Shown here: piece by piece, positions 45,772-46,215 of the stretch
Position numbering within the stretch: the first letter of the stretch is position 1
How the letters are laid out: every line of letters starts with the position of its first letter
Source of the DNA: Parcubacteria group bacterium Greene0714_7
Lineage (GTDB): Bacteria > Patescibacteriota > Minisyncoccia > Phycocordibacterales > Phycocordibacteraceae
NCBI GenBank assembly: GCA_007378985.1
Contig: VMHB01000001.1
Coordinates: 252 to 64,251, forward strand
Length of the DNA stretch: 64,000 nt
Direction of reading: 5' to 3'
Notes under the pieces: model-generated
Seen by the model: the letters and a program-made list of their open reading frames with translations, nothing else
Told to the model about the DNA's origin: nothing
Databases searched by the model: none
Translations under genes and position numbers: made by a program

Positions 45772-45918
45772 TTAAAATTTGATTACGTGTTTAATAAGCT
45801 CTAGCCCCGCTCCCGCCACAGCGTGAGCACCTACATCAGACCCGAAGTGTTTTATGACCTCCAGTGCACCAGCAACCCCGACACCTGTCCCTACTATTTT
45901 TGCTTTTTCAAATGCCAT
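45772..45918 (-). CDS. Small Gly/Ala-rich peptide (48 aa), paralog 1
   Basis: MAFEKAKIVGTGVGVAGALEVIKHFGSDVGAHAVAGAGLELIKHVIKF. Has a conserved leader motif (see finding 14). Confidence 0.35.
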   Translation of the reverse strand: MAFEKAKIVGTGVGVAGALEVIKHFGSDVGAHAVAGAGLELIKHVIKF

Positions 45919-46034
45919 ACGGGTGAAAGATGAGGGTTGATAAAAATCGACCTTTCACCTATAAAACTCAGGTTTCTACCTGAAGGTTGCAAAAGGATAT
46001 ATTGATGTTGAAATAAAAAATTCCCCTAGGTGGG

Positions 46035-46081
46035 GAGTGCAATTGCACTCATAACAAGCGAATATATTCGCTTGTTATGAG
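46035..46081. repeat. Two adjacent perfect palindromes (GAGTGCAATTGCACTC and CTCATAACAAGCGAATATATTCGCTTGTTATGAG)
   Basis: Read directly. Confidence 0.7.
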
Positions 46082-46092
46082 TAGCCTAAAAC

Positions 46093-46215
46093 TCAGGCTG
46101 TAGTAGTACCGCCCTGCTTAAAGAGCTCGGCAAAAAGTCCGACTGCTCCGCGACCAGCTTTACGCTCGCCACCAACACGAACTCCTACTGATGCGTCTTT
46201 TCCTTCGTATGCCAT
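46093..46215 (-). CDS. Small Gly-rich peptide (40 aa), paralog 2
   Basis: MAYEGKDASVGVRVGGERKAGRGAVGLFAELFKQGGTTTA. Shares a leader motif with 45772-45918. Confidence 0.35.
   Translation of the reverse strand: MAYEGKDASVGVRVGGERKAGRGAVGLFAELFKQGGTTTA

Follow-up and report, generated by a model that had tools for sequence, protein, structure and literature searches.

Probable co-regulation of two orphan small-protein genes by an ECF-type sigma factor in a patescibacterial genome

Are two neighboring open reading frames (ORFs) of fewer than 60 codons, preceded by the same short sequence, genes at all, and if so, what joins them? The question is raised by a stretch of 64,000 nucleotides (the window) from Parcubacteria group bacterium Greene0714_7 (GenBank assembly GCA_007378985.1, contig VMHB01000001.1, positions 252 to 64,251), in which ORF1 (45772-45918) and ORF2 (46093-46215) lie on the minus strand and are annotated in GenBank as the hypothetical proteins Greene07147_57 and _58. 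The Candidate Phyla Radiation (CPR)/Patescibacteria have many small genes that are unannotated or "hypothetical," and to our knowledge next to nothing is known of the control of their transcription and translation. A preliminary description of the window had presented the two ORFs as paralogous peptide genes with a conserved leader hairpin. Half of that interpretation stands: the two ORFs are genuine genes with a regulatory element in common, but they are not paralogous, and the hairpin belongs to one of them only. Small-protein genes, each terminated separately, form a tandem array at this locus; the proteins of the array are mutually unrelated, and the genes bear copies of one promoter-leader module. 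Judged from the sequence, ORF1 and ORF2 are probably co-regulated orphan genes driven by an extracytoplasmic function (ECF)-type sigma factor.

ORF1 encodes a Gly/Ala/Val-rich protein of 48 amino acids (aa) (MAFEKAKIVGTGVGVAGALEVIKHFGSDVGAHAVAGAGLELIKHVIKF) and ORF2 a basic, Gly/Arg-rich protein of 40 aa (MAYEGKDASVGVRVGGERKAGRGAVGLFAELFKQGGTTTA); coordinates and translations are as first described, and so is the richness in small residues, with glycine, alanine, and valine together making up 47-48% of either peptide. The gene order is groES-groEL, lemA, htpX (convergent with ORF1), three small ORFs, tRNA-Ser, and VKOR. The locus was recovered from relatives by exact-sequence look-ups and motif scans, both in close strains (L001-L010 and L024, 94-100% identity) and in four more diverged lineages (L013/L023, L018/L029, L019, and L022). 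The window's lineage carries what we term type-A alleles, the diverged relatives type-B alleles. Type-B ORF1 (MAFEKTKIIGVAAGAAGATGVVETIKHLGVEVGVHAVAGAGLEFLKHLVKL) has 51 aa, reduced to 48 aa in L019 by an in-frame 9-nt deletion, giving orthologs of 48-51 aa in L013, L018, L019, and L022; type-B ORF2 (MAEVTSSERMFGARLGGQSLEGRKGAALLAEFFGRSQKVG) has 40 aa in every type-B locus.

Comparison among the type-B loci provides the evidence for translation. In ORF2, synonymous and nonsynonymous changes stand at 16-17:1 between L013 or L022 and L019, and at 10:0 between L013 and L018; in ORF1 the ratio is 14-16:0 between L013 or L022 and L019, with the 9-nt in-frame indel in addition. The probability of such ratios arising by chance is about 1e-8 (arithmetic on the counts, assuming about 25% synonymous sites). 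Synonymous divergence of ORF1 and ORF2 among these loci, 0.38-0.56, is the same as that of htpX (0.53). Because the type-B substitutions are near-exclusively synonymous, chance ORFs and pure RNA genes are ruled out, and by this pattern ORF1 and ORF2 are translated genes under strong purifying selection. The proposal that they are real small-protein genes is thereby upheld: neither a lack of conserved peptides and leader nor interrupted homologs were encountered, and the orthologs in the four further lineages are intact.

The supposed paralogy, by contrast, finds no support, since BLASTP of ORF1 against ORF2 returns no similarity and the duplication is limited to promoter-leader DNA. ORF1 contains two copies of a G-x-A-G-x-L-E-x-I-K-H unit, and an AlphaFold2 single-sequence model (predicted local distance difference test score 77) places helices at residues 2-25 and 28-47, so that the fold is predicted to be a helical hairpin. 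ORF2 has a conserved core, G-x-R-x-G-G-x4-G-R-x5-L-x-A-E-x-F, with a conserved R-x-G-G at residues 13-17; it is hydrophilic (grand average of hydropathy, GRAVY, -0.2) and basic, with a short amphipathic stretch at the C-terminus. Both are without signal peptides and without Trp, and their net charge is only +1 or +2. The best 19-residue Kyte-Doolittle window scores 1.2-1.3 in ORF1 and 0.27 in ORF2, where 1.6 is the customary cut-off for a membrane helix, and by hydropathy no transmembrane segment is predicted in either.

Outside the immediate relatives the two proteins stand alone. Word-indexed protein searches with ORF1 and ORF2 returned only the queries themselves, and when ORF1 was run through HMMER against the full set of 1.84 billion representatives, nothing came back apart from the query and spurious repeat matches in giant adhesin-like proteins. 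Pfam, NCBIfam, PHROGs, PADLOC, and PDB sequence searches gave no match for the small proteins, Foldseek with the ORF1 model gave only non-significant two-helix matches (E>1), and Rfam, both at the gathering threshold and at E<=5, gave only tRNAs. A scan of a genome contig collection yielded one related locus and six chance matches, and one of metagenome contigs yielded three loci, all of the same small clade; viral contigs, scanned by DNA motif and by protein, yielded no match. ORF1 and ORF2 are thus orphans, with no homologs found beyond a small clade of close relatives.

What the two genes do have in common lies upstream. The 64 kb contain just two exact copies of the sequence GTGAAAGGTCGAT, one at 45946-45958 and one at 46247-46259 (both on the minus strand), at equal offset to each ATG, much as the preliminary description had observed. 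Its 9-mer GAAAGGTCG occurs twice in the window against 0.29 expected, both times at this locus, and the repeat around the motif (repeat family D2) reaches 27 nt at 89% identity. Before ORF1 the shared element reads AGTT-TTATAG-GTGAAAGGTCGATTTTTAT (45940-45968, minus strand), in which a -10-like AGTT is followed by the predicted transcription start and by the conserved first part of the leader; before ORF2 it reads AGTT-ATATAA-GTGAAAGGTCGATATTTTAT (46240-46269, minus strand). Farther upstream on the same strand, and followed in each case by a 17-nt spacer, are the -35-like hexamers TGCAAC for ORF1 (45986-45991), a conserved island amid variable sequence in 12 loci, and TGTAAC for ORF2 (46287-46292), which overlaps the stop codon of a 69-aa ORF.

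In the leader alignment every locus has TG[C/T/A]AAC, exactly 17 nt, and AGTT, the spacer being constant in length and free in sequence. From AGTT to the ATG follows a near-invariant block that opens with the shared motif, and the leaders are about 95-100% identical across lineages whose htpX synonymous sites are 38-54% different. Two conserved blocks joined by a spacer of fixed length and free sequence are the signature of a bipartite promoter; what has been duplicated is a promoter-leader module. Scanning the region for sigma-70 promoters gave no match, and neither leader has a TAnA[AC]T box in the sense orientation. CIRCE, HAIR, and sigma-32, sigma-28, and sigma-54 consensus sequences were also compared by eye, and none suited both leaders. 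We infer that the module is an alternative, ECF-sigma-type promoter composed of a -35 TGNAAC, a 17-nt spacer, and a -10-like AGTT.

In ECF promoters a group-specific, CGT-like -10 lies 14-17 bp downstream of the -35, and transcription starts 6-8 nt beyond the -10; those of Bacillus subtilis sigma-W, sigma-M, and sigma-X have TGAAAC, TGCAAC, or TGTAAC, 16-17 nt, and CGTA, CGTC, or CGAC. The ECF signature is a -35 with an AAC motif (tgaAAC-like) followed by a T-rich stretch (PMC5758882). A gene for an ECF sigma factor of 171 aa (Sigma70_r2/r4_2) is situated 2.6 kb from the array in the sister genomes L029 and L023. It is preceded by TGTAAC-N16-CGTC-TCTACTT-ATG in L029 and by TGTAAT-N16-CGTC-TCTACGT-ATG in L023, with a spacer that varies in sequence and not in length, a probable autoregulated, leaderless ECF promoter. 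The -35 hexamer of the sigma gene is 27 nt from the start codon, and in both leaders TGNAAC is likewise 27 nt from the GTG at the head of the motif. Because of this equal spacing, the transcription start most likely coincides with the beginning of the motif, which probably marks the 5' end of the transcripts. ORF1 and ORF2 would then be co-regulated and, lying beside htpX, lemA, and groESL, most likely effectors of an envelope or proteostasis stress response.

In both sister genomes the sigma gene belongs to a block between DUF1761 and VKOR (L029:5321-8007, and likewise in L023) with genes for Transgly_assoc, a YggT-like protein, a 190-aa protein, the ECF sigma, DUF5670 (43 aa), and a 148-aa membrane protein, the Transgly_assoc, YggT-like, and DUF5670 products being small membrane proteins, whose counterpart in the window is a YkuD/Peptidase_S11 gene at 47654-49093.

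The hairpin that had been proposed for both leaders exists before ORF1 (45922-45959, minus strand), where the 5' arm GGTGAAAGGT (45959-45950) lies within the shared motif and pairs with the 3' arm ATCTTTCACC (45931-45922), which ends 3 nt before the ATG and leaves the AUG itself outside the stem. The predicted folding energy (dG) is -12.8 kcal/mol (z -2.5). A start-occluding hairpin or RNA thermometer would be expected to sequester the ribosome-binding site or the AUG and to show covariation. Here the 8-bp core is invariant in 12 of 12 leaders, and neither of two G>A changes at the base of the stem has a compensating partner, so that covariation speaks neither for nor against the hairpin. Before ORF2 there is no equivalent fold: the leader (dG -3.7, z 0.0; consensus fold -2.6) folds no better than shuffled sequence and lacks a complementary arm, and a shared leader hairpin was accordingly rejected. 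Present in front of ORF1 only, the hairpin does not explain the shared motif.

A further possibility concerns translation. Most genes in the window lack a Shine-Dalgarno (SD) sequence (e.g., those starting at 44241, 47232, 56938, and 60700), and in many of them a TAnAAT/TAnACT-type box, frequently gTTAGAAT or TGaTACAAT, has its end 6-11 nt ahead of the ATG; for these two reasons most transcripts of this genome appear to lack a leader. For leaderless initiation in mycobacteria, an ATG or GTG at the 5' end is both required and sufficient, and 5'-terminal small ORFs of this leaderless kind are common (PMC4633059). At the present locus 19 of 20 leaders have GTG or ATG (RTG) as the triplet at the predicted +1, and each time G has changed to A there, in the ORF1 leaders of L013, L018, and L022 and the ORF2 leaders of L019 and L022, a start codon has been kept. 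The GTG of the ORF1 leader (45958-45956) would open a 16-codon mini-ORF, MKGRFLS[T/A]LIFHPYGI*, whose TGA stop (45910-45908) overlaps codons 3-4 of ORF1; that of the ORF2 leader (46258-46256) would open one of nine codons, MKGR[Y/N]FIKK*, with its stop 14 nt before the ORF2 ATG. If so, the RTG that opens the motif would be the leaderless start codon of a mini-ORF of 9-16 codons, which would bring ribosomes to the small gene by termination-reinitiation and would explain how genes with leaders are supplied with ribosomes where SD sites are absent. The ORF1 hairpin, in which the transcript's 5' end pairs with the bases immediately preceding the AUG, could gate reinitiation. The leaderless mini-ORF is a speculative element of the model.

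Termination signals complete the ORF2 unit. Directly 3' of its stop is a perfect 18-bp palindromic hairpin (inverted repeat I2, 46047-46082, minus strand; core AACAAGCGA/TCGCTTGTT) with a dG of -35 kcal/mol (z -7.0) and compensatory double changes in four pairs across five lineages. It is followed by an intrinsic terminator, TCCCCACCTAGGGGA and a T-run (46014-46036, minus strand), that is conserved in all lineages. Five independent Logan contigs (L004-L008) start within the palindrome (at about 46076 of the window); the perfect inverted repeat has caused an assembly break there, and these starts are not a biological end. After ORF1, type-B relatives have a perfect palindrome of 28-50 nt, GAAGTGATTTGATAT|ATCAAATCACTTC (L013:5198-5330, L019:975-1107, L022:547-679), one arm of which resembles the 3' end of htpX. 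The window's lineage is without it (45763-45772): only 8 nt separate the stop codons of ORF1 and the convergent htpX, no terminator is obvious, and for these reasons ORF1 transcripts may run antisense into htpX.

The history of the coding sequences differs from that of their surroundings. Between the window and L013, ORF1 shares 65% aa identity (nonsynonymous divergence, pN, 0.20; synonymous divergence, pS, 0.64) and ORF2 only 31% (pN 0.50, pS 0.74), while the pS of htpX is 0.38. Between L013 and L019 the htpX value is larger, 0.53, and yet their peptides are near-identical. The core of ORF2 can still be aligned between types A and B (BLASTP E=5e-5). A frameshift, or an origin of the two types of ORF2 from the same DNA, was dismissed, with nucleotide identity at just 44% even though the protein core can be aligned. 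Since the excess of divergence over htpX extends to synonymous sites, an old or imported allele is likelier than a burst of positive selection alone. The 17-nt spacer of ORF2 exists in two unrelated forms (window, L010, L020, and L013 versus L002, L003, L018, and L022), whose distribution cuts across lineages, and the terminator-to-promoter segment of the window is common to L019 despite the type-B genes of the latter. By these sequence patterns the locus is a recombination mosaic. The window's lineage has replaced or strongly diverged alleles of both peptides, which would have been exchanged by recombination between conserved leaders and terminators; that both peptides changed together hints that their products act together.

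A basic 69-aa ORF (_59; 46288-46497, minus strand) immediately upstream is probably the third member of the array. It has homologs of 78-80% identity at the same position, a pN/pS of 0.36, and variable sites distributed almost evenly (10:11:15) over the codon positions; the coding evidence is weaker than for ORF1 and ORF2, and its structure model is poor. Its synonymous divergence is unusually low (0.12 versus 0.38 for htpX, window versus L013), possibly through an overlapping constraint, and in L020 its N-terminal 20 residues are replaced. RNA structure in this region was set aside on account of weak support and little covariation. The leader alignment places a degenerate promoter module, CGGAAC-N17-AGTA (46537-46563, minus strand), before the 69-aa ORF. 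L020 (2750-2980; also L021) has an extra cassette between tRNA-Ser and a 68-aa ORF, consisting of TGAAAC-N17-AGTT, a motif variant AGCGAGAGAAAGGTCGTTTTAT, and an unrelated basic 51-aa ORF MEGGADKKRVRALIGEAAHILGRAERLAHRHRSDAIGFLGEVGRAKRKSDG; this TGAAAC-N17-AGTT before the 51-aa ORF is the homologous site to the degenerate module.

Several observations weigh against the ECF interpretation and its translational extension. No sigma gene was found within the 64-kb window, nor any promoter of the sigma-gene type, TGNAAY-N16-CGTM. The AGTT conserved at exactly 17 bp shares only GT with the CGTC of the sigma promoter, and the bare pattern KGNAAC-N17-AGTW is unenriched in the window (three matches versus 2.0 expected). 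Independent lineages number only about five. The stress role derives from promoter type and neighborhood only, the proteins being without homologs. As to the mini-ORF, its start triplet is GCG in L010, there is no RTG in the extra L020 cassette (GCG) or before the 69-aa ORF (GAG), and the ORF2 mini-ORF of L019 contains a 1-nt indel. Taken as one overall reading, the combination of tandem array, ECF-sigma-type module, leaderless mini-ORF, and allele exchange seems to us evenly balanced between true and false. A bolder extension would make the motif a portable cassette of alternative-sigma promoter and leaderless mini-ORF, with the leader and terminator blocks as homology arms for the swapping of small coding sequences; we think it rather unlikely, but if true, this would be a small-gene exchange locus in CPR bacteria, with co-existing populations trading coding sequences that are unrelated or highly diverged.

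The same observations can be read in other ways. If the genes were transcribed from a housekeeping-sigma promoter with a long AT-rich 5' untranslated region (UTR), the motif would be an operator or RNA-binding site with no part in the transcription start or in a mini-ORF, and its regulator possibly the 69-aa protein. TATAAG/TATAGG inside the module does resemble a weak -10, conservation of about 20 nt of motif exceeds the needs of a start site alone, the 69-aa ORF is basic (+5) and adjacent in every case, and the same module in L020 would drive the 51-aa ORF together with the 68-aa ORF. Yet TATARG lacks the invariant final T of the window's -10 boxes, the motif is not palindromic, and no DNA-binding domain is recognizable in the poorly modeled 69-aa protein; the conserved TGNAAC island and the fixed 17-nt spacer would also be left unexplained. 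We regard this account as doubtful. An RNA-centered reading, in which the conserved elements are RNA genes and the ORFs incidental, fits the comparison of types A and B, where conservation of the leaders and the 3' hairpin far exceeds that of the ORFs; it fails on the near-exclusively synonymous type-B substitutions, the in-frame indels, and the preserved ORF lengths, and no Rfam family matches even at E<=5, which makes it very improbable.

Two further readings concern what the peptides do, and to each we assign only a slight probability. In a type I toxin-antitoxin (TA)-like system, the peptides would be toxic and would be silenced both by structure in the 5' UTR and by an antisense RNA arising within the conserved leader. 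The tandem small ORFs, the leaders far better conserved than the coding sequences, the ORF1 hairpin ending at the start codon, and opposite-strand TAAAAT -10-like boxes within the ORF2 leader (46224-46229 and 46241-46246) are all compatible with such a system. The hydropathy maxima and GRAVY value given above are, however, not those of a hydrophobic transmembrane helix; the antisense strand of the ORF1 leader has only TAAAAA, an antisense terminator was not found, Pfam, NCBIfam, and PADLOC give no match, and strong purifying selection on a hydrophilic peptide is atypical of such toxins. Much the same low probability attaches to leaderless bacteriocin-like, competition, or signaling peptides under diversifying selection, a bacteriocin-like or membrane-active role having been suggested from the outset. 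The peptides are short, Gly-rich, and amphipathic and have no signal peptide, ORF2 has its conserved R-x-G-G, and the locus is a mosaic with two very divergent alleles. That role loses its footing, however, in the missing transmembrane segment, the absence of Trp, and a charge that is far from strongly cationic. Nor were ABC transporter, C39 peptidase, immunity, or modification genes found within about 3 kb (Pfam) or about 10 kb (from precomputed Pfam assignments for the genes called in related loci), where the neighbors are htpX, lemA, groESL, VKOR, and YkuD/S11. Near-invariance within the type-B clade is the opposite of diversifying selection, and no protein library searched gave a match. 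Co-regulation of the two genes from an ECF-type promoter is the reading that we prefer.

A few other small features of the window may be recorded. A third ORF that starts with MAFE, of 43 aa (33298-33429, plus strand), had been mentioned together with ORF1 and ORF2; it does exist just upstream of bcp, stopping 1 nt before the bcp ATG (TAA-T-ATG), but kinship is not supported, for similarity to ORF1 does not extend past four residues and no shared motif lies upstream. ATGGCA starts are common in the genome. The ORF is identical in all four loci fetched, in which the flanks compared differ from the window by 0-2 bases, and its layout with bcp would suit translational coupling in a genome without SD sequences. 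The groEL-lemA interval holds two small plus-strand ORFs (44042-44200 and 43849-43974), one of 52 aa (MSEAYFDPSTTPLGKEEVRGL...) that is conserved in L019 and one of 41 aa with a C-x4-C ... C-x2-C pattern. Downstream of tRNA-Ser (46725-46810) are copies of its 3' end, both direct (46789-46813, 46962-46986, and 47143-47167) and inverted (46859-46874 and 47057-47073). They resemble integration leftovers, and in L013 a 413-aa gene (6443-7684) lies between such repeats.

The locus thus yields two small proteins whose reality is borne out by the way they accumulate substitutions, a candidate signature of an ECF-type regulon along with a probable autoregulatory sigma promoter, and a testable model for the translation of a leader-bearing gene in a largely leaderless, SD-less organism, and it exemplifies allele replacement between invariant regulatory blocks. 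Its value is mainly that of a lead, given the narrow scope (a few closely related groundwater Paceibacterota) and proteins with no assigned function.

Among known systems, the type I TA tandem loci ldr/rdl, ibs/sib, zor/orz, and hok/sok similarly have tandem genes for proteins of <60 aa, individually equipped with promoter and terminator, and a long 5' leader that is better conserved than the coding sequence, with a start-adjacent hairpin in one copy here (ORF1); unlike theirs, the array peptides are not hydrophobic transmembrane toxins, and a sequence relationship is lacking. The leaderless multi-peptide bacteriocins aureocin A70 and enterocin L50 are encoded by adjacent genes for Gly/Ala-rich helical peptides of 30-50 aa without a signal sequence. 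Compared by description, the array is similar in each of these respects, whereas its peptides are not strongly cationic, without Trp, and without a transporter or immunity gene, and are expressed from separate promoters and terminators and not from one operon. The comparison with mycobacterial leaderless small ORFs and upstream ORFs (Shell et al. 2015; PMC4633059) is sequence-based here, and the downstream genes are tiny, with one natural variant and one related cassette lacking the RTG; alike are the RTG at the predicted +1, the SD-less and largely leaderless genome, and a short ORF that precedes or overlaps the start of the downstream gene. ECF-sigma-dependent promoters differ in having CGT[AC] where the module has the -10-like AGTT, and a spacer one base shorter. 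In other respects the module is like Bacillus subtilis sigma-W/M/X-type promoters, with identical -35 hexamers, a T-rich stretch next to them, and a fixed spacer length, and its targets, like those of ECF-sigma-dependent promoters, are small, separately transcribed genes near envelope and proteostasis genes.

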